A stretch of DNA of 64,000 bases from a virus (Duplodnaviria > Caudoviricetes), in the IMG/VR virus record IMGVR_UViG_3300037067_027649, positions 14,964 through 78,963 of that record; one strand, 5' to 3'. Both the position numbers and the translations under genes were made by a program. Shown here one piece after another: positions 1-49,453 of the stretch (its first letter is position 1; each line of letters begins with the position of its first letter). The notes beneath the pieces were generated by a model, which saw nothing but the letters and a program-made list of their open reading frames with translations, was not told the DNA's origin and did not search any database.

Positions 1-636
1 ACTTTTATAGAATTACAAAATAATCCAATAAATAAACCATTTGATAGTTTTAAAAAACTTGAAGAATTATATGATTATATTCAATCATATACTGGTGATA
101 AAAAAGTAAATCAAATGTTAAAAGCATTACCATCAGGCACACGTTCATTTGCCGAAAAAAGTAAAGAATTGAAAGATTTATTAAAAATGAACATAAAATA
201 CACTAAAGCTATTGTAGATTTATATTCAAAAAAAGGTGGTAGATATAAAGAAATAAAAAAATTAATAAGTGATACTATTGATTATATTACAAATATAAGT
301 GGTGATTTTAATTTAGAAAATATGTTAGAAAAAATAAAAGATTATAATGTTGAAATTATTGAAGCTAATCCTGAAATTTTAATGATAAAAGTTAATGATT
401 ATAAAGCTGCTCATGATTTAGGTTCAATACATTGGTGTATAAGTACATCAAAATCAACATTTGAACAGTATGCAAATGCTTTTACTGTTCAATATTTTAT
501 TTATGATTTTACTAAAAAAATATCTGATATAAGTCATTTAATTGGTGCTACATTAAATCCAAATGGTGAAATAGCATATGCACATTATGCTGATGATTCT
601 AAAGTAGAAGATTTATCTATTTTTGATGAATTATAA
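1..636 (+). CDS. hypothetical protein, 5'-truncated at window edge
   Basis: Frame 1 is open from base 1 (TFIELQNNP...) into ORF 115..636; contains HWCIST..F..Y..QYFIYDF motif. Confidence 0.7.
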   Translation, partial: TFIELQNNPINKPFDSFKKLEELYDYIQSYTGDKKVNQMLKALPSGTRSFAEKSKELKDLLKMNIKYTKAIVDLYSKKGGRYKEIKKLISDTIDYITNISGDFNLENMLEKIKDYNVEIIEANPEILMIKVNDYKAAHDLGSIHWCISTSKSTFEQYANAFTVQYFIYDFTKKISDISHLIGATLNPNGEIAYAHYADDSKVEDLSIFDEL

Positions 637-646
637 AACTAATATT

Positions 647-1480
647 ATGAAAACTTTTAAACAATTTATATATGAAGGAAAACAAGTTGGATTATTATAT
701 CATTTTACTAATAATGAATCTTTAAATAAAATTTTAGATGAAAATAAAATGATTGGTTCTTTTATGTATGAAGAAAACGGTAAAGATATATATGGTGTTT
801 CTACAACAAGAAATAAAAATTTAAATTATGATTTTAAAAAAAATAATATACGAATTACTCTTGATGGTGATAAATTATCTAATAATTATAAAATTAAACC
901 AAAAGATTATTGGTATAGACAATATAACATTCCATTCAACCCACAAACAGTAGATGAAGATGAAGAAACTATATTAACACCAAAAGGATATATATATAAT
1001 ATTAAAAATTATATAATATCAATTGATAATATTAAAAATCAAAATTACATTAATGAAAATTCTAATAATGATAAAATAATATATCATTTTACTGAAAATA
1101 TAGATTCACTATTATCTATTTTAGATAGTAATTCGTTACAATCTGGTTCTTTTAATGGTAGATTTGGAAGAGGATATGAAAATATATCTTTTACTTGGAA
1201 TCCTAATTTATGGGATATTGAATATGTTGGAGATATTGAAGAAAGATATAAAATAAGAATATCTTTTGATTATACTAAAATGAGTAAAAAATGGGAATTT
1301 AAACCATTTGATTATGGAATACCAGAAGAACAAGAAGAAATTGTAGAAGAAGAAGAAATGTATGGAATTTTAGAATACATTACTGAAATTTTAATTAGTT
1401 CTAAAGAATCTAAAAAAGAAGTTCAAAATTTAAAAATTCGTTATCCAAAATTAAATATAAAAATAGTTAAAAGAAAATAA
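647..1480 (+). CDS. tandem DarT-like/ART-fold protein with capsid-targeting-like leader
   Basis: Probable start MKTFKQFIYE at 647; two repeats of YHFT..L..IL...(S/T)..N...RI..D..K.....KP....E.EE joined at YINE. Confidence 0.55.
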   Translation: MKTFKQFIYEGKQVGLLYHFTNNESLNKILDENKMIGSFMYEENGKDIYGVSTTRNKNLNYDFKKNNIRITLDGDKLSNNYKIKPKDYWYRQYNIPFNPQTVDEDEETILTPKGYIYNIKNYIISIDNIKNQNYINENSNNDKIIYHFTENIDSLLSILDSNSLQSGSFNGRFGRGYENISFTWNPNLWDIEYVGDIEERYKIRISFDYTKMSKKWEFKPFDYGIPEEQEEIVEEEEMYGILEYITEILISSKESKKEVQNLKIRYPKLNIKIVKRK

Positions 1481-1483
1481 TAA

Positions 1484-1666
1484 CTAATTTTCATTTACTT
1501 TAAATAGAACATCTATAATTAAATCAGTGTTAATTAAATATCCATCTTTATCAAAATAAAGTGGTTTACCATTTTCAGAAAAAGTATTAGTTTTTCTAAA
1601 TTTGTTATCACAATATTCTTTATATTTTATTTTTTGACAAAATGTCAATTCTTTATATTTATTCAT
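1484..1666 (-). CDS. hypothetical protein (probable start MNKYKELTF)
   Basis: The ORF-track extension to 1705 runs into the attC hairpin; ATG at 1666. Confidence 0.6.
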   Translation of the reverse strand: MNKYKELTFCQKIKYKEYCDNKFRKTNTFSENGKPLYFDKDGYLINTDLIIDVLFKVNEN

Positions 1667-1669
1667 TAT

Positions 1670-1762
1670 AATAAACGGCTGCGTGTATGAAACGTAGCCA
1701 CGCACAACACTTGATATAAACCACAGACCTTAATTGGCTATGTTTTATACACGATGTTAGCA
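1670..1762 (-). other. attC-like recombination site
   Basis: AAC...GTT-bounded ~90-nt imperfect palindrome; arms CGTGTATGAAACGTAGCCA (1682-1700) and TGGCTATGTTTTATACACG (1735-1753) give 17 WC plus 2 G.T pairs. Confidence 0.65.
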
Positions 1763-2398
1763 CCAGTACGGGTTATTTAGTGGAATTTTAAATTTGGAAT
1801 ATTTATATATAAAGATAAAACGATGAGTAAAGAAATACGACAAATGATAGACAAAGTGAAAAACTTTAAACAATTTGTGAATGAACAACAAGAAATTGAA
1901 ACCAATATAAATAATAATTTTAGAAAATGGTTTAGTGGTAGTAAAGTTGTTTATAATGGAAAACCATTACCTGTTTATCATGGTTCTCATTCTGATTTTG
2001 AAGAATTTATGGGTGATACATATTTCACAGATGATTATATGAATGCTGACGGATATGCTGGTGGTGAATATGTATATGAGGTTTTTATATCAATAAAAAA
2101 TCCACTAATTATTGATGCAAAAGATAGAAAATGGGATGATATTGAAACCGAAGATGGTGTAACATCAACACAAGGTATTGTTGGTATGGTAGATAGAAGT
2201 AAATATGATGGGGTTATTTTTATTAACGTTAAAGATAGTTGGATAGATGATGTTGACTATCAAGATGCTTCAACCATATATGTTACATTTAAACCTAACC
2301 AAATTAAATCTATTGATAATGATGGAACTTGGGATATAAATGATAATAACATATATTCATAATGCTTAATCGAAGCACTTCCGTAGTATTGGTGCTAA
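1676..2398 (-). mobile_element. integron-like gene cassette inserted at a GTT site
   Basis: Ends TGTTAGCACCAGTA (1755-1768) and TATTGGTGCTAACA (2387-2400) are 13/14 inverted complements; attC-like hairpin at one end; removal restores a TAATG gene overlap. Confidence 0.7.
1823..2362 (+). CDS. ART-PolyVal-like ADP-ribosyltransferase-fold protein
   Basis: WFSGSKVV..G.PL.VYHGS, YFTDD, ISIKNPL, YDG, FKPNQIKS; leader ...VKNFKQFVNE; paralog of 49508..50179. Confidence 0.65.
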   Translation: MSKEIRQMIDKVKNFKQFVNEQQEIETNINNNFRKWFSGSKVVYNGKPLPVYHGSHSDFEEFMGDTYFTDDYMNADGYAGGEYVYEVFISIKNPLIIDAKDRKWDDIETEDGVTSTQGIVGMVDRSKYDGVIFINVKDSWIDDVDYQDASTIYVTFKPNQIKSIDNDGTWDINDNNIYS

Positions 2399-2520
2399 CA
2401 ATTAAATAACCAAATAAAAAATTTACATAGATACACACCAATTGTAATTAAACCAACTACACTTAATAGTAATACAACAACCCAAAAATAATCGGAATCA
2501 GTGTTAATAAGTTTTTTCAT
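2395..2520 (-). CDS. 41-aa membrane protein, C-terminus clipped by cassette insertion
   Basis: MKKLINTDSDYFWVVVLLLSVVGLITIGVYLCKFFIWLFNC*; the TAG stop lies in the cassette end. Confidence 0.55.
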   Translation of the reverse strand: MKKLINTDSDYFWVVVLLLSVVGLITIGVYLCKFFIWLFNC

Positions 2521-2524
2521 AATT

Positions 2525-3040
2525 TTAAAATAAAGATGTATTTGTAGATTTAGAAAATCTATCAATAAGTTTTAAGATAATTTCATTATCTGAATTTATC
2601 ATTAATTCATTTTTATCATCATATTGAATATCAACATCTTTAATTTTATTTTCTATGATTGAAGATAAAATATTTTTATTGATTGTTGGTAAATTTTCAA
2701 TTTTTGGGTAAGCAGCAATTATTTTAAAACAATTATGTTTTATCATAAAATGTGTATTACATCTATCAGCTTCATCATCATCTTGACATTTCATAATTTC
2801 AAAATCATTACCTTTATCTGTAACGTCACTTAAATCATAAAGATAATAATCATCAGTTTTGATAATATCTTTTGATATTAAAATCATTTGATACGGTGTC
2901 CAATGAATATCATTACAACTTTCCATCATTTTGATGATATTTTCATCTAAAATTATTATAGTATCTGTTAATTTTGATTTACAGATATCACCAACTTCTA
3001 AGTTCTTTTTAATAGGAACAAAATATAAATGTTTTTCCAT
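2525..3040 (-). CDS. hypothetical protein
   Basis: 171-aa ORF in a tightly packed minus-strand operon. Confidence 0.7.
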   Translation of the reverse strand: MEKHLYFVPIKKNLEVGDICKSKLTDTIIILDENIIKMMESCNDIHWTPYQMILISKDIIKTDDYYLYDLSDVTDKGNDFEIMKCQDDDEADRCNTHFMIKHNCFKIIAAYPKIENLPTINKNILSSIIENKIKDVDIQYDDKNELMINSDNEIILKLIDRFSKSTNTSLF

Positions 3041-3041
3041 A

Positions 3042-3317
3042 TTATAAAATATTTTTTAATTTCATTCTTCTTTTTAAAGAAATATCATCAGTATCCCAAA
3101 ATTCACAAGGAATTTTTTCATCTAAGATTTTAAAACAATTTTTACTTATTTCACAATCATCATTATATCCAAATATTTCAGAACCACTATATGCATGATA
3201 TTTACATGAATGACATAATTTTAATTTAGGATTAAAATTACATATTTTTTCATGTTCTTTAATCTTTTCTTTAGTTCCAGTTTCACTACAAAAATCACAT
3301 TTCCAAACTAATTTCAT
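3042..3317 (-). CDS. small Cys-rich (Zn-finger-like) protein with C-terminal basic tag
   Basis: WKCDFC..HEKIC..NP..KLCHSC..C..C.FW; ends RRMKLKNIL. Confidence 0.65.
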   Translation of the reverse strand: MKLVWKCDFCSETGTKEKIKEHEKICNFNPKLKLCHSCKYHAYSGSEIFGYNDDCEISKNCFKILDEKIPCEFWDTDDISLKRRMKLKNIL

Positions 3318-3607
3318 TTATTTAAAATTTTATTAATTTTAAGTTTTCTTTCTAATTTATTATTTTGTGCTTCCCAAAATTTACAAGGTATATTATTATC
3401 CATTATTATACTTTTGATGAATTTAGATTTTGGACATGTAAAAAGAACTTCACAATTTTCATTTTCAGAATAATAATGATATTTACAAGTTGGACATAAT
3501 TTATTTTTCAAATTATATACACAACTATCTTCATGTTTAGCTACAATTCGTCTACTTTTATCACTAAAATTACAATATTTATATTTACATTTCCAAATTA
3601 TTTCCAT
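3314..3607 (-). CDS. paralog of 3042..3317
   Basis: Probable start MEIIWKCKYKYC at 3607 behind TATATTTG (3622-3629); ends ERKLKINKILNK. Confidence 0.65.
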   Translation of the reverse strand: MEIIWKCKYKYCNFSDKSRRIVAKHEDSCVYNLKNKLCPTCKYHYYSENENCEVLFTCPKSKFIKSIIMDNNIPCKFWEAQNNKLERKLKINKILNK

Positions 3608-3652
3608 ATAATTATAAAATACAAATATAATAATTTTTATTATAAAAAACAA

Positions 3653-4144
3653 TTAAATATCTTTATTTTCTTCTTTTTTCAAATGTGGAAATAGTTTATA
3701 AAATCTTTTCCAAGCTGTTTTTCTTTTTTTACTTGGATATCTTATACTATTATAATTATCATGACCACTACCACAATTTATATAAGTTTTATTATCTTGT
3801 CTTGGTGGTTTTGTCATAGTATTCATATGTTTATGCTTAACGTGTTGATCTAAATTATTATAAGTCCAATGATATTGTAAATCTATAACACTAACATTAG
3901 CTTTATCATATAACAAATAAACTTTTATTGAATCATCTAATTTTTTTCTTTCATTTTTTTGTCTTGTACTATAAGAAATCATCATATTTTTTAATGATGA
4001 TTTAAGTATGAAATTATTGGAACGTATTAATGATGTTAATACACCATATTCTTTATCGGTTAAAGATTTTAATAAATCTTCAACCTTTAATATAGTATCT
4101 TTATAATTTTCAAAATATTCCTTTACATCATCTTCACTGTGCAT
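3653..4144 (-). CDS. hypothetical phage protein
   Basis: 163-aa ORF; C-terminal IRYPSKKRKTAWKRFYKLFP. Confidence 0.7.
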   Translation of the reverse strand: MHSEDDVKEYFENYKDTILKVEDLLKSLTDKEYGVLTSLIRSNNFILKSSLKNMMISYSTRQKNERKKLDDSIKVYLLYDKANVSVIDLQYHWTYNNLDQHVKHKHMNTMTKPPRQDNKTYINCGSGHDNYNSIRYPSKKRKTAWKRFYKLFPHLKKEENKDI

Positions 4145-4424
4145 AAGGCTTCCATTCTTTATATTTAATTAATTCTTTTTCATCATCATTAAGAAGATAT
4201 TCAAGTACTTCAAGTACTGCTTTATCTTCTTTTTTCAAAAGTCCAGAATAATCCCATTTATCAGGATTTGCTATATATTCAAACCATTCATATAATTCAT
4301 CTGGTTTTTCTTTTTTATATTCAACACAAATTCTTGCTTGCTGCTGAATTTTACTTAACATATTACCTCTAATTTCAGCAAGAATTTTATATGTTTTTAA
4401 TTCAATATCTTTTGTTGTTTTCAT
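4134..4424 (-). CDS. hypothetical protein
   Basis: 96-aa ORF, operon-packed. Confidence 0.65.
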   Translation of the reverse strand: MKTTKDIELKTYKILAEIRGNMLSKIQQQARICVEYKKEKPDELYEWFEYIANPDKWDYSGLLKKEDKAVLEVLEYLLNDDEKELIKYKEWKPYAQ

Positions 4425-4426
4425 AT

Positions 4427-4627
4427 TTATTTATTAAAAAATTTTCCAGTTCCACCACATTTACTACAAGTGAAAGTTAAACTACTTCCACAATAACCAC
4501 GTTTACCAACATATGTTTTACCACTTCCATAACAATTAGGACATTTGTTATGAAATAACCCATAAAACCATTCATGTATAGTTTTAAAAAATGGTTTACC
4601 ATTAATATTTATTTCTATAAATGCCAT
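4427..4627 (-). CDS. mini protein with DnaJ-type CxxCxGxG zinc finger
   Basis: CPNCYGSGK and CSKCGGTGK. Confidence 0.7.
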   Translation of the reverse strand: MAFIEININGKPFFKTIHEWFYGLFHNKCPNCYGSGKTYVGKRGYCGSSLTFTCSKCGGTGKFFNK

Positions 4628-4631
4628 AATT

Positions 4632-5024
4632 TTATTTATAAATAGTTCCTATTTTAACTCGTTTATATGTTGGTACATCAATAAAATATGTTTCTTCTTT
4701 TGGTGTTATTATTTGTGCTATTGTATGATTTCTTCTTAATATTGCATCATAATAACTATCAATAATAATAGCTTTATAACCAACTGGCATATCTTCGCCA
4801 TCATCTAAAATAGAATCATGAACATAATCATACATATCATCACTTTTATTATTTTTAAAAAGTTCTTTATGTAAATTTCTTCTTTCTTCTGTTAGAATAT
4901 TTATTTTTTTAGATGCTAATCTATGTTCTTCTGATCTAACATCAGTTTCCGCAAATCTATTAAGAGCATCAGATGTTTGATTTTCAAAATCTTTAAATGT
5001 GTTTATTAATTCTTCTATATTCAT
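4632..5024 (-). CDS. hypothetical protein
   Basis: 130-aa ORF. Confidence 0.65.
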   Translation of the reverse strand: MNIEELINTFKDFENQTSDALNRFAETDVRSEEHRLASKKINILTEERRNLHKELFKNNKSDDMYDYVHDSILDDGEDMPVGYKAIIIDSYYDAILRRNHTIAQIITPKEETYFIDVPTYKRVKIGTIYK

Positions 5025-5037
5025 AAAAAATATTTTT

Positions 5038-5217
5038 TTATTTATAGTCAGGTAATAAAGATTTGTTGTTATCTTCTAATATTTTTCTCGCTATCTTTCT
5101 TGCATCATCAGCAAAATCACCTTTAATTTGTTTTCTACCTAAAGGTGTATCAACAACAGCCATTAAATTAATAATACAGTCCAATAGCTCCTGTTTTGAT
5201 TGTTTTATTTCATCCAT
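5038..5217 (-). CDS. 59-aa hypothetical protein (not in ORF track)
   Basis: MDEIKQSKQELLDCIINLMAVVDTPLGRKQIKGDF...; fills an operon gap exactly. Confidence 0.6.
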   Translation of the reverse strand: MDEIKQSKQELLDCIINLMAVVDTPLGRKQIKGDFADDARKIARKILEDNNKSLLPDYK

Positions 5218-5740: not shown

Positions 5741-5917
5741 TTATTTTTTATTTACATTTTTACACCACCAAATATACAATTCTTCTGTTGTATATTTCTT
5801 ATTATGAATATCATCTATAGTATAAAATAAATCATACCAATCGTTTTCAACTAAATCTTCTGGATTATTTTGAAATTTAACCCTTAACCATTCGGCAAAT
5901 TTTATAATATCATTCAT
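5741..5917 (-). CDS. 58-aa hypothetical protein (not in ORF track)
   Basis: MNDIIKFAEWLRVKF...; overlaps the DHFR stop and fills the gap. Confidence 0.55.
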   Translation of the reverse strand: MNDIIKFAEWLRVKFQNNPEDLVENDWYDLFYTIDDIHNKKYTTEELYIWWCKNVNKK

Positions 5918-14692: not shown

Positions 14693-15295
14693 GTGTTGAA
14701 ATATTTAAAATCATATAACGAATCACTAAGAGATAAAATGAAACCAAAAAGTGATGAAGAAATTTTGAAAGATTTAGGTAAGTTATCACCAGAAGAAATG
14801 CTATTAACATCTATTAAAAATAATTATGTAAATGGTGTTAAAAAAGCTTTAGAAAGAGGTGTTAATATAAATAAAAAAAATGAACGTGATTATAATAGAA
14901 CAGCTTTATTATATGCTTCTATATATGGATATAAAAATATTGTTGAAATTCTTCTTAAAAATGGTGCTGATATTAATATTCAAGATGTAAATGGTTGGAC
15001 AGCTTTAATATTTGCTTCAAATCATGGTCATAAAGATATTGTTGAAATTCTTCTTAAAAATGGTGCTGATGTTAATAAAAAAATATTTAATGGTGAAACA
15101 GCTTTAATGTCAGCATCAAATAAAGGTTATAAAGAAATAGTTGAATTATTATTAAAACATGGTGCTGATATTAACATAACAAATAAATTTGGTTATACAG
15201 CTTTATACTATGCTTCATTAAAAAAATACAAAGCTTTAATAAAAGAATACAAAGAAATAATTGAATTATTAAAAAAATATGGTGCTAAAGAATAA
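14693..15295 (+). CDS. ankyrin-repeat protein with shared leader
   Basis: About 4 G.TAL..A...G...IV.ILL..GADIN repeats; N-terminus LKYLKSYNESLRDKMKPKSDEEIL. Confidence 0.92.
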   Translation: MLKYLKSYNESLRDKMKPKSDEEILKDLGKLSPEEMLLTSIKNNYVNGVKKALERGVNINKKNERDYNRTALLYASIYGYKNIVEILLKNGADINIQDVNGWTALIFASNHGHKDIVEILLKNGADVNKKIFNGETALMSASNKGYKEIVELLLKHGADINITNKFGYTALYYASLKKYKALIKEYKEIIELLKKYGAKE

Positions 15296-46011: not shown

Positions 46012-47880
46012 TTACTTAACTTCTTCAAAATCTACATTCGTTGCACTATCGTTTGGTTTACTATTTTCACTATCATTAGTAGTAGAATTACCACTTTGAT
46101 AAATTCTTGTACTAATCTTATTCCAAATTGTAGTAAGTTCTTCTGATATCTTATTCATGTTACTAAAATCTTTGGAATCTTTTGCTTTTTTCAACTCTTC
46201 AACTTTAGATGTAAGTTCATCTTTTTCATTACCAACAAACTTATCTTCCATTTCTTTCATCTGTTTCTCAGTTGAAAAAATTAATGAATCTGCTTTATTG
46301 ATATTATCAATTTCTTCTTTTGCTTTACGATCATTTTCAGCATTTTCTTCAGCTTCTTTTTTCATTCTTTCAACTTCTGATTTATCAAGGTTAGAAGAAC
46401 CATCAATACGAATGTTTTGTTTTTTCCCAGTTCCCTTATCATGAGCAGATACTTCTAAAATACCATTAGCATCAATATTGAATGTTACTTCAATTTGTGG
46501 TGTACCACGCATTGCGGGTGGAATTCCATCAAGATTAAATCTACCTAAAGATTTATTATCTTTAGCCATAGGTCTATTTCCTTGTAAAACATGTATTTCA
46601 ACAGATGGTTGATTATCAGAAGCAGTACTAAATACATTAGATTTACTTACAGGAATTGTAGTATTCGATTCAATCATCACCGTAGATACACCACCCATAG
46701 TTTCTATAGACAAATTTAAAGGAGTCACATCAAGAAGAAGAACATCTGTAACATCACCAGTTAAAACAGCAGCTTGAACAGCAGCACCCAAACTCACCGC
46801 TTCATCAGGATTAACATTTTTATTTGCTTTTTTGTCAAAAACTTTTTCAACTACGGCTTGAACTGCTGGTATACGTGTAGAACCACCAACTAAAATTACT
46901 TCATCAATATTTTCTTTGTTCAAACCAGAATCCTTCAATGTTGTTTCACAAAGTTTAGTCAATTTATCCAAATATTTATCAATCATTTGTTCAAATTGTG
47001 AACGAGTAATAGTTTTTACCAAATGCATAGGAATACCATTAATTGGTATAATATAAGGTAAATTAATTTCAGTTTGAGTTGATGTTGATAATTCAATTTT
47101 AGCCTTTTCAGCAGCTTCTTTTAATCTTTGATGTGCAATAGCATCTTTTCTTAAATCAACATTATTTTCTTTATAAAAATCTTCTGCAAGCCAATTAATA
47201 ATTTCTTCATCGAAATTATCACCACCAAGTAAAGAATCACCTTTTGTTGCTTTAACTTCAAATACACCATCACCCATATCGAGTATGGAAACATCGGATG
47301 TTCCACCCCCGATATCGTAGACAACTATTTTTTTATCACCTTTTTGTTCAAGACCATATGCTAATGCTGCTGCAGTAGGTTCATTGATAATACGAAGGAC
47401 ATTCAAACCAGCAATTTCTCCAGCTTCTTGTGTACTTTTTCTTTCTTGATCATTAAAATACGCTGGAACTGTAATAACAGCATCTTTAACTTCATAACCC
47501 AAATAATCTTCGGCAGTTTTCTTCATTTTCTGCAAAATCATAGCAGAAATTTCTTGTGGTGTATAATCCCTTCCACCAATTTCAACAACAGCATTTCCAT
47601 TTGAACCACTTTTAACTTTATAAGGCATTTTAAGGTTTTCAACATCTTTATATTTCTTACCCATAAAACGTTTTATACTATAAATTGTATTTGTCGGGTT
47701 AGTTACAGCTTGACGTTTTGCTGGATCACCAATTTTTCTTTCACCATTTTCCAAAAAAGATACAATTGATGGTGTAGTTCTTTTACCCTCACTATTTGGG
47801 ATTACTACTTTTTCATTTCCTTCGAATACACTTACACAAGACGTTGTTGTTCCAAGATCAATTCCTATACATTTTTTCAT
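46012..47880 (-). CDS. dnaK: Hsp70 chaperone DnaK
   Basis: [50 protein letters not shown]. Confidence 0.98.
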
Positions 47881-48010: not shown

Positions 48011-49453
48011 ATGACAAAAGGAAATATTATTAATAATTTAACTGAGAACCAAAGAAGAGATTTTTATTTTAAAAATCATTATCCTGATTTATACAATGAA
48101 ATTATTCAAAGTAATAAATTAAATATTACATATTTTTCTCAAATTTTATATAATTATTGTTATGATATCAAAGAAATTCCTAAATGTAAAATATGTGGAA
48201 ACGAATTGAAATTTGTGAGATTCACAATTGGGTATAGAACATTTTGTTCTACAAGTTGTGCAATGCATGATAAAGATTTGATTAAAAAAAGAAATGAAAA
48301 AACTAAAAAAACATGTTTAGATAAATATGGCGTAGAAAATGTAATGCAAACAAAAGAATTTAAAGAAAAAATAAAAGAAACTTGTATTCAAAAATATGGG
48401 AAAGAATTTTTTATGCAAACTGATGAATTTAAAGAAAAAATGATAAAAAATAATAAAAAAAAATATGGTGTGGATTATTATTTTCAAACTGAAGATTTTA
48501 AAGAAAAAGTTAAAAATTATAGTTTGAATAAATATGGTATTGAACATTATAACCAAAGTGAAGAAATTATAAATAAAAAACATAAAACTAATTTAGAAAA
48601 ATATGGTAATATTTATCCAACAACATCAAAACAAGTAAAAGATAAAATAAAAGAAGCGTTTTTAAATAAATATAACTTCGAACATCATATGACATATAAA
48701 AAAGAAATGAATTTATTAAAAGATTTTTTTAAAAATAAGTCTGATGAATATTATAAAAAATATGAAAATGATATAATTTCTATTATTGATATAAATGATG
48801 ATATATTACATATGTTTGATAAAAATTGTAATCATGATTTTTATATAAACAAACAATTATTATATTTAAGAAACAAAAATAATCATAAAATATGCACTAA
48901 ATGTAATAATGTGTTTAGTAAAAATACATCATATATGGAAAAAGAGTTATTAGAATTCATTAAAAATAATGTTAAATATGGTGTTTTATATAATGTTAAA
49001 AATGTAATTAAATTAGAACTTGATATTTATATACCAGAATTGAGTGTTGCTTTTGAATTTAATGGTTTATATTGGCATAATGAATTATATAAAGATAAAT
49101 ATTATCATTATAATAAAACTAAATTATGTGAAGATAAAAATATTAGATTGTATCATGTTTATGAAGATGATTGGGTATATAATAATGAAAAAATAAAAAA
49201 TGATATTTTAAATATTTTAAATAAAAATTATTTAAAATTAAATGATGAAAATATTTTAGATAGAGGATGGAATTTATATAATATTAAAAATAAACATTAT
49301 ATTTACACAGAACCTAATTGTTATTTTATTATTGATAAAAAAAGATTTAATAGTTATTTGTTTATTAATAATAATGAATTTAACGATATTAATTTTTTAA
49401 AACAAAATGATATTTATAGAATATATGATTCTGGTTATATAAAAATAATATGA
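48011..49453 (+). CDS. homing-type endonuclease with KYG repeats and PD-(D/E)xK domain
   Basis: Repeated T..EKYG....Q; ELDIYIPEL..AFEFNGLYWH. Confidence 0.75.
   Translation: MTKGNIINNLTENQRRDFYFKNHYPDLYNEIIQSNKLNITYFSQILYNYCYDIKEIPKCKICGNELKFVRFTIGYRTFCSTSCAMHDKDLIKKRNEKTKKTCLDKYGVENVMQTKEFKEKIKETCIQKYGKEFFMQTDEFKEKMIKNNKKKYGVDYYFQTEDFKEKVKNYSLNKYGIEHYNQSEEIINKKHKTNLEKYGNIYPTTSKQVKDKIKEAFLNKYNFEHHMTYKKEMNLLKDFFKNKSDEYYKKYENDIISIIDINDDILHMFDKNCNHDFYINKQLLYLRNKNNHKICTKCNNVFSKNTSYMEKELLEFIKNNVKYGVLYNVKNVIKLELDIYIPELSVAFEFNGLYWHNELYKDKYYHYNKTKLCEDKNIRLYHVYEDDWVYNNEKIKNDILNILNKNYLKLNDENILDRGWNLYNIKNKHYIYTEPNCYFIIDKKRFNSYLFINNNEFNDINFLKQNDIYRIYDSGYIKII

Follow-up and report, generated by a model that had tools for sequence, protein, structure and literature searches.

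A lone gene cassette in a large phage genome and a candidate integron-like, Xer-associated cassette system in its relatives

Integrons are seen as a bacterial innovation that depends on a single specialised enzyme, the integrase IntI. Here we ask how a 723-bp segment with the build of an integron cassette came to lie inside an operon of a large phage. The segment occupies positions 1676-2398 of a 64,000-nt stretch (positions 14,964 to 78,963 of the IMG/VR virus record IMGVR_UViG_3300037067_027649, Caudoviricetes), which is referred to below as the window; the complete contig is 78,963 bp (79 kb) long. An initial annotation, made from the window alone, had described the segment as a solitary attC-like cassette inserted at a GTT shared by both ends. 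Our analysis indicates that the segment is probably a lone cassette of a phage-borne, integron-like system, placed here by the secondary insertion activity of an Xer-like recombinase.

The surrounding minus-strand operon is tightly packed. The 729-nt gap at the insertion stands out as anomalous because the other genes of the operon abut or overlap their neighbours. On one side of the gap lies a small membrane-type open reading frame (ORF) of the host operon (2395-2520, minus strand; 41 residues from the ATG at 2520), the TAG stop codon of which (2397-2395) is supplied by the cassette. On the other side, downstream of the insertion, lies a 60-residue ORF (1484-1666, minus strand). The minus-strand sequence of the cassette had been read correctly, base for base, in the initial annotation, and in silico removal of 1676-2398 (723 bp) at the shared GTT reproduced all parts of the empty site predicted there. 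The expected 29-mer was obtained, the 729-nt gap was closed, and the membrane ORF ended in WLFNCLL, two codons later than now, with a stop codon that overlaps the ATG at 1666 as TAATG.

The borders of the unit are evident from a JGI metagenome contig (L102) that was found by an exact 26-mer from the cargo gene and carries the same cassette within an array of five sites. Identity to the window is 92.5% from the R' box to the start codon, 95.7% in the ORF (174/179 residues) and 91.9% in the 3' tail, and it is 78% in the spacer and hairpin, where a G-C pair of the stem has been replaced by A-T in a compensatory change. In the flanks, 60 nt on either side, the identity is 55-63%, which is background. 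Because the BLAST alignment spans window positions 1674-2399 and nothing else nearby, the cassette ends lie within the shared AAC (GTT on the minus strand), where the initial annotation had placed them, and its proposal of a discrete mobile cassette with these ends agrees with the alignment.

Contigs from other samples break at the same positions. A 647-nt sediment contig matches 1755-2395 at 98.4% and stops at both borders, and a freshwater-sediment contig tracks the window to 2399 and then continues as unlike DNA. Several contigs from public runs join the hairpin (1676-1760) to other sequence at the R' box, and Logan contigs of other samples end or diverge at 1755/1760 and 2395/2399. In two landfill metagenomes (runs X2 and X3), a joint 1813>2368 leads from the 5' leader region straight to the 3' tail and skips the cargo gene; judging from these contigs, the frame of this cassette probably also occurs without cargo or with a different one.

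Read on the plus strand, opposite to the operon, the cassette consists of a spacer, a hairpin, an R' box, a promoter-like motif, a gene for an ADP-ribosyltransferase (ART) and an R'' box. At its left end, AAC (1674-1676, plus strand) is a 3-bp repeat shared with 2397-2399 and represents the presumed crossover core. The related sites described below have TAAC at this place and the window has AAAC, and the base 5' of AAC is therefore target-derived. The core is followed by an unpaired spacer (GGCTG, 1677-1681, plus strand), placed by the alignment of related sites, in which the consensus is GGTTG. The imperfect hairpin covers 1682-1753 (plus strand) with a stem of 19-20 bp (1682-1700 with 1735-1753) and a loop of 32-34 nt; its length of 72 nt is less than the approximately 90 nt first estimated. 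Both of its non-Watson-Crick pairs are G.T on the plus strand and C.A on the minus strand, located at the fixed positions of the family; the initial annotation had likewise assigned the G.T pairs to the strand opposite to the orientation it gave the cassette. The stem arms match only each other, and the same type of spacer and hairpin is found in L031 (position 1349) and L104.

Two bases after the hairpin, a 16-nt R'-like box (1756-1771, plus strand) forms the 5' end of the cassette core. It consists of GTTA, 4-5 variable bases and CAGTACGG, and the identical 16-mer was found in L002, L010, L016, L034, L043 and L102. Its inverted partner is the R''-like box (2381-2399) that closes the conserved 3' end (2368-2399, plus strand) and ends in TAAC (2396-2399). 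The 10-mer GTTAGCACCA has exactly two copies in the 79-kb contig, 1756-1765 (plus strand) and 2390-2399 (minus strand), where 0.73 copies with at most one mismatch are expected by chance. With one indel, the inverted match reaches approximately 16-19 nt (1756-1771 against 2381-2399), in agreement with the earlier claim that the two ends complement each other. The composition of the cassette is also foreign to the contig (30.0% G+C as compared to 21.2%), which puts it in the top 2.5% of 723-bp windows and supports its interpretation as an incoming cassette; the median of its relatives is 29.7%.

The conserved A/T-rich, promoter-like motif (1795-1813, plus strand) is located 10 nt upstream of the start codon and is kept at this place, ahead of the ORF, in the cassettes of many loci. 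The rest of the window shows no enrichment of the motif, which is thus not a general one in this phage. A sigma-70 scan gave no more than chance, and the motif is a putative promoter.

The folding energy of the window hairpin is unremarkable (z of -1.7 on the plus strand and -0.8 on the minus strand), and the case for the hairpin therefore rests on covariation within its family. We aligned 34 family sites (alignment A1) and built the covariance model from them. The consensus fold contains 23 pairs, 14 of which display compensatory double changes. In the alignment 97.9% of the cells are paired, as compared to 82% after shuffling; none of 500 shuffles reached any of five measures, and slid registers collapsed to 37-57% paired. 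Three positions are kept as G.T in nearly all sites (31-34 of 34), which restricts the fold to the strand that is sense for the ORF, and the model scores the window site at 82.2 bits on the plus strand and 15.5 bits on the minus strand. The loops of the family range from 19 to 90 nt, the structure is conserved over the sequence and the imperfections are strand-specific, as in attC-type hairpins. Based on this analysis we conclude that the family hairpin is a selected, strand-specific fold.

The order of elements is the same throughout the family. A box that ends in TAAC is followed by the spacer GGTTG, a hairpin of the same shape with another sequence, 1-2 nt and a box of the form GTTA...CAGTACGG, after which the cassette continues with the A/T-rich motif, an ORF and a tail that ends in the complement of its own 5' box. 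AAC and GTT are invariant or nearly so, the boxes pair, and the complementarity of the ends is cassette-specific, such that the boxes of each cassette pair with each other. Thus, the site is attC-like in its architecture (AAC, spacer, imperfect hairpin, GTT) and in its strand bias, as first described. The core boxes of attC sites, R'' (RYYYAAC) and R' (GTTRRRY), also pair with each other. Both in the window (GTTAGCA and its complement) and in the common boxes of the family, 1-2 positions depart from this consensus; the deviation of GTTAGCA had been pointed out earlier, and the strict attC consensus does not hold for this site. A second, short type of site was observed in the same TAAC...GTTA frame, with an 11-bp stem, an 11-nt loop and a length of approximately 62 nt (L018:580-640; L021:1554-1600; L022:3935-3985 and 5020-5070; L024:5537-5590 and 5862-5912). 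The short sites are repeated identically in some phages and mixed with long sites in one array.

A tyrosine recombinase accompanies the arrays in related contigs. The search for this enzyme covered five records and gave a match in the contig of L003, approximately 0.7 kb downstream of the last hairpin site. The last cassette of L003 starts with the identical 16-mer of the window and ends in the same TAAC box, which continues directly, without an intervening hairpin, into the DNA that precedes the recombinase gene. The array-linked enzyme has 285 residues. Its profile scores are all below the NCBIfam cutoffs (score/cutoff: XerA 189/220, XerD 162/330, XerC 161/335, and 156/265 for TIGR02249, the integron integrase), and its nearest solved relative is the archaeal XerA (4a8e). 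The catalytic motifs R (GLRVSE), HTLRHS, GHS and IYTH align with those of XerA, XerD and IntI, in keeping with the R..K..HxxR..H/W..Y signature and two-domain fold of Xer-family tyrosine recombinases. Its alignment to the Vibrio VchIntIA (2a3v) falls into two pieces, with 22 residues between them as compared to 73 in IntI; the IntI-specific insert of approximately 50 residues is missing, and the enzyme is therefore not IntI. By these comparisons the array-linked enzyme is predicted to be Xer-like and an orthologue of no named Xer. The initial annotation had suggested looking for an IntI-like tyrosine recombinase in phage or host; what the phage relatives encode is an Xer-like enzyme and not an integron integrase, and no IntI was seen in any locus examined.

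IMG/VR holds 217 relatives of the 285-residue enzyme. A variable box and a TAAC/TAT.ATATATA junction precede the recombinase gene in nearly all of 53 loci, a count that takes in short TAAC-CATAAC variants and was made loosely. The covariance model gave 251 matches (E <= 0.001) in 86 loci. Almost all of them precede the recombinase gene and share its strand; one match is located downstream of the recombinase and approximately ten are weaker reverse readings of the same sites. The arrays contain up to approximately ten sites in 6 kb, head to tail in one orientation, and end at the conserved junction directly upstream of the recombinase gene, an attI-like platform that is found in the relatives only. 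The cassettes hold one or two small accessory genes, and the cargo ORFs read towards the recombinase with a promoter-like motif on each. In lone and terminal cassettes the hairpin is located 5' of the ORF.

Arrays of different contigs were also compared. L037 and L038 are 99.97% identical from the junction TAAC onward and unrelated before it. L018, L021 and L022 have the same cassettes in different order, or one extra site-bounded cassette. We conclude that the cassettes are discrete units with base-precise ends in the TAAC/GTTA core, and that the arrays are anchored on one side of the Xer-like gene. With the G.T-bearing strand taken as the "bottom" strand, the integron order of recombinase, insertion site and array is reproduced.

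Cassettes also occur outside arrays. In other large contigs of related huge phages the sites are present in small dispersed groups and singly, on both strands, which bears out the earlier suggestion that single cassettes occur in huge-phage genomes. The lone cassette in L104 has the hairpin type, spacer and polarity of the window cassette, with the hairpin at the 5' side and the 3' box abutting ordinary DNA, and this arrangement of one hairpin on the 5' side per cassette and a 3' box against non-cassette DNA is also found in L024, L016, L010 and L011. No complementary 3' box was found for the lone sites in L105 and L106. The window cassette is likewise solitary, as first described, outside any array and at an AT-rich G/TT site. 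The accompanying statement that cassettes move without attI or an array holds for this contig and not for the system, in which the arrays of relatives end at a junction beside the recombinase.

Two further observations concern the junction. In L016 (1084-1140) and in the junction loci, the longest recombinase frame starts at a TTG inside the terminal box of the last cassette, and the junction therefore overlaps the 5' end or the promoter of the gene. With each new cassette, the DNA directly ahead of the recombinase gene would change. Among cultured phages, those of Cellulophaga and Polaribacter carry the closest related enzymes, with identities of up to 38%. The Polaribacter phages Freya_1 to Freya_10 (MT732463-MT732472; L099-L101) differ in length by up to 4.9 kb, and Freya_10 has ten small hypothetical genes before the integrase. 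The identity of 99.8% between Freya_10 and Freya_1 begins 67 nt ahead of the start of the integrase, immediately before a box that ends in TAAC. From their sequences, the Freya phages may serve as a cultured model for cassette gain at the junction.

In the explanation that we consider probable, the Xer-like recombinase would excise cassettes as circles and insert them at the junction beside its own gene, and occasionally at secondary A/T-rich sites with GTT/AAC. The window copy would represent such an off-target insertion in a packed operon, downstream of the gene for a small membrane protein and ahead of the gene that follows it. The crossover would take place in or next to AAC on the plus strand (TAA/C; G/TT on the minus strand), with the hairpin travelling 5' of the cargo, and the enzyme may have been supplied by the unassembled part of this phage genome, approximately 89%, or by a co-infecting phage. 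A crossover at TAA/C on the plus strand fits the window, the recombinase-proximal junction, L104, the pair L020/L055 and L024, which has three hairpins and three cassettes with each hairpin on the left.

Several results weigh against this explanation. Neither the window, as noted in the initial annotation, nor any other part of the 79-kb contig contains an integrase or tyrosine recombinase (PF00589). Further hairpin units, which the initial annotation had suggested searching for, are present in the 86 related loci (251 matches) but not in this contig, where a full covariance-model scan of window and contig gave only the window site. Neither the predicted empty allele nor a circular form of the cassette was found; the 29-mer was absent from IMG/VR and from the JGI metagenome contigs, and no relatives that conserve both cassette flanks were found in viral or metagenome contigs. 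The insertion is inferred and not observed, because no empty allele was found and no relative keeps both flanks. The 3-bp AAC repeat is equally compatible with a microhomology-mediated accident, and G.T wobbles on the sense strand would suit an RNA structure equally well. In the comparison with L102, conservation is lower in the hairpin than in the core of the window cassette (78% as compared to 95%), and hairpin types are joined to many different boxes. Finally, in the short-hairpin lineage of L018, L021 and L022, spacer single-nucleotide polymorphisms (SNPs) follow the left neighbour in two cases, which fits a crossover at the opposite side of the hairpin, or homologous exchange within hairpins of identical sequence.

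The last point concerns the side of the crossover. Homologous cassette pairs are few, only nine among 268 cassettes, and conflict on which hairpin travels; L020/L055 favour the left hairpin, whereas the spacer SNPs of L018/L021/L022 favour the right hairpin. Use of both strands may explain these SNPs.

Among the alternatives, the one that survives best, although we consider it unlikely, is that the sites are regulatory repeats like the promoter and stem-loop cassettes (PeSL) of T4-type phages. The hairpin and promoter would then constitute a terminator/promoter module, and genes would be shuffled by homologous recombination without involvement of the recombinase. Such a module would account for the conserved promoter-like motif just upstream of each cassette ORF and for the G.T wobbles on the transcribed strand, and the exchanges among L018, L021 and L022 are explicable by crossovers inside identical 40-nt hairpins; both PeSLs and mini-circles are documented in T4-type phages (PMC2839356, PMC4122927). 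However, the hairpin has a loop of 30-70 nt and no T-run, and a terminator scan was negative. The ends of each cassette are complementary to each other, and in dozens of loci the sites keep to a single strand and a single side of the recombinase gene, where the junction is base-precise. Moreover, the window flanks have no repeat homology to the family beyond AAC, and therefore homologous recombination is unlikely to have placed the window copy.

It is very unlikely that the segment is a classical integron cassette with a true attC site, moved by a bacterial IntI of the host with the phage as a passive carrier, as described for attC clusters in phages. The AAC...GTT core, the imperfect hairpin, the variable loop and the strand bias do resemble attC, and in experiments IntI1 has recombined attC sites carried by phages (PMC9892861). 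On the other hand, the boxes miss RYYYAAC/GTTRRRY, the L-type boxes are direct and not inverted, and the cargo lies in inverted orientation behind an upstream motif of its own. The arrays are accompanied only by a phage-encoded, Xer-like recombinase, no IntI was seen in any locus, and the sites occur in hundreds of phage contigs.

We assign an equally low probability to chance capture, in which a fragment of an array was pasted once into this genome by microhomology-mediated end joining during co-infection and the site is inactive here. The junction homology of only 3 bp, the single copy and the absence of a recombinase on the contig are in line with such an event. Nevertheless, both breakpoints are placed exactly in the conserved TAAC core of the family, the fragment is one complete unit, and its polarity and ends recur in the lone cassette of L104. 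The least probable explanation is a non-autonomous transposon similar to miniature inverted-repeat transposable elements, bounded by the 16-19 bp inverted repeats (1756-1771 and 2381-2399), mobilised by an unknown transposase and merely adjacent to the hairpin. In its favour, imperfect terminal inverted repeats bound the gene, and 1755 and 2395 are break positions of Logan contigs. Against it, the target sequence is not duplicated apart from the shared AAC, and none of the cassettes encodes a transposase. The L102 homology begins with the AAC (1674-1676) and not at 1756, and it takes in both the spacer and the hairpin. The repeats in arrays always flank the hairpin in one direction relative to the recombinase, and no copies bounded at 1756/2399 with target duplications and without an adjacent hairpin were seen.

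The cargo of the window cassette (1823-2362, plus strand, against the operon) is a protein of 179 residues. It matches Pfam PF18760 with 69.2 bits (cutoff 31.2), an E-value of 8e-19 and coverage of 134 of 140 profile positions, and is a predicted ADP-ribosyltransferase of the ART-PolyVal family. Homologues at 66-85% identity are present in IMG/VR contigs of up to 270 kb, most of them flanked by the same cassette architecture. The first 22 residues (window 1823-1888) recur almost unchanged on cassette proteins with unrelated bodies (L012:3001, L013:3001, L014:3001 and L015:3001), of which the body in L014 is a GNAT acetyltransferase and the other three match no family. A related leader is found on the ART homologues in L001, L002 and L004, and all leaders end in (L/V)-N-E. 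The leaders of T4 internal proteins are cut at L/I-x-E by the prohead protease. By analogy, the (L/V)-N-E end may mark a capsid-targeting tag for injected effectors.

Beside the insertion, an ORF at 623-1480 (plus strand) passes the Pfam cutoff for Tox-ART-HYD1 (27.8 bits as compared to 25), and an ORF at 1-636 (plus strand) gave a faint SpvB-type match. The neighbourhood thus contains three putative ADP-ribosyltransferases, only one of which is inside the cassette.

The gene content of the window is that of a large myovirus-type phage, with a tail sheath protein of 1175 residues, an NAD-dependent ligase, a sigma factor and a DHFR-like ORF. CheckV estimated the contig to represent approximately 11% of the genome. 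The 79-kb record is labelled "provirus" in IMG/VR; its content (tail sheath, ligase, sigma factor and 21% G+C throughout) resembles a fragment of a large lytic-type phage. Searches for relatives of the locus gave few matches. The flanking 171-residue protein has one distant homologue, on a 1-kb contig, and no homologue of the 60-residue ORF was found outside this phage. Two other contigs with the flanking proteins (L098 and L103) are the same allele at 100% identity, and blastn of window positions 1-5000 against 50,697 phage records gave no match. In the public runs X2 and X3 this phage is present only as short pieces at approximately 3-4x depth that bridge neither junction. A joint 1664>2401 in run X5 was not counted as an empty site, as it has 22 letters on one side, is A/T-rich and shows 88% likeness. 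A crude detector of AAC-hairpin-GTT units gave many chance matches in this 21% G+C DNA, and the strongest three (24588, 47667 and 48848) have no family feature. Scans of the window with Rfam, which has no attC model, and for tRNAs gave no match.

Elsewhere in the operon that received the cassette, two adjacent ORFs of 91 and 112 residues (3042-3652, minus strand) are paralogous and have Cys-rich motifs and a similar basic C-terminus in common; the pair looks like a tandem duplication. The window contains another mobile element, an HNH-type homing endonuclease ORF of 480 residues (48011-49453, plus strand; PHROG 3339, E-value 6e-54), which is situated between a minus-strand ORF (46012-47880) upstream and genes downstream.

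Taken together, it is conceivable, and we put it forward tentatively, that an AT-rich lineage of uncultured large phages runs its own analogue of the integron. A compact Xer-type enzyme without the domain thought to be necessary for the chemistry at hairpin sites would capture cassettes with a promoter-like motif of their own beside its gene and scatter single ones into ordinary operons, in cis or, during co-infection, in trans, and the cargo would include leader-tagged injected effectors (ART, GNAT and others). If this is correct, phages have come to possess a system parallel to the integron that is built around an ordinary Xer-like recombinase. It would explain how huge phages gain and reshuffle small accessory genes with base precision, and why the same effector gene is found in unrelated contexts across groundwater, landfill and sediment samples; the cassettes would amount to a swappable arsenal of injected effectors. 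The lone cassette of the window is the informative case, as it displays the exact ends of the unit against non-repeat DNA and the parts that travel together, and it shows that insertion is not confined to the platform site. It also opens the question of whether the IntI-specific domain is required for recombination of folded sites, and the compact pair of recombinase and site is possibly useful as a tool.

We found no published description of a phage cassette platform with an Xer-type enzyme; in print we found only the recombinase-less attC clusters of phages (PMC9892861) and the PeSL papers. A blastn search with the consensus family site against the 50,697 phage records gave no match.

The leaders can be compared to those of the T4 internal-protein genes with their capsid targeting sequence, in which a short conserved N-terminal leader likewise precedes unrelated cargos (here the ART of the window and the GNAT of L014). 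Packaging and cleavage of the cassette leaders are, in comparison, putative. The PeSL cassettes of T4-type phages are similar in that promoter and stem-loop repeats flank small accessory ORFs in hyperplastic regions of large lytic phages and that relatives swap whole ORFs. The PeSL cassettes are considered to be shuffled by homologous recombination of the repeats, a scheme that includes neither a dedicated recombinase nor a fixed insertion junction (PMC2839356, PMC4122927), whereas the phage cassettes described here have a recombinase-linked junction and the window copy is located at a site without homology.

Host XerCD is exploited at dif-like 28-bp sites by integrative mobile elements exploiting Xer (IMEX) of the CTX-phi type and by the pdif modules of Acinetobacter plasmids, and in CTX-phi the site is formed by a folded single strand. 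The movement of discrete DNA modules by a recombinase of the Xer family, as proposed for the phage cassettes, is common to both. Unlike in these elements, the enzyme is phage-encoded, the hairpin unit is 100-140 nt long and the cassettes build up in arrays. Clusters of attC sites without an integrase (CALINs) have been described in virulent and temperate phages, including a Polaribacter phage, and were recombined by the bacterial IntI1 (Qi et al. 2023, PMC9892861). They share with our loci the presence of hairpin cassette sites in phage genomes without IntI. Compared by description, they differ in that the attC sites are of the IntegronFinder type, the phages are treated as carriers and no phage recombinase platform is named (PMC9892861).

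Integrons resemble the phage system in several respects. In both, small cassettes of one orientation form arrays and are separated by imperfect hairpin sites that have an AAC...GTT core, a strand-biased fold and a structure better conserved than the sequence. The ends of each cassette pair, the insertion junction adjoins the gene of a tyrosine recombinase, the reading direction of which is away from the array, and stray cassettes are found at GTT-type secondary sites. There are also differences. The phage enzyme is an Xer-like protein of 285 residues that lacks approximately 50 residues of the IntI-specific insert, whereas the extra domain of IntI (the I2 alpha-helix) is needed for recombination of single-stranded attC (PMC7790495). 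The stems of the phage family are long (19-22 bp) and have fixed G.T wobbles instead of the known extrahelical bases, and the boxes deviate from RYYYAAC/GTTRRRY. The phage cargo genes face the recombinase and have their own promoter-like motif, whereas integron cassettes are mostly promoterless and consist of an ORF followed by attC, and the carrier is a large phage of the lytic type. Since the enzyme is not IntI, the boxes are off consensus and the polarity of the cargo differs, the system does not belong to the integron family in the strict sense.

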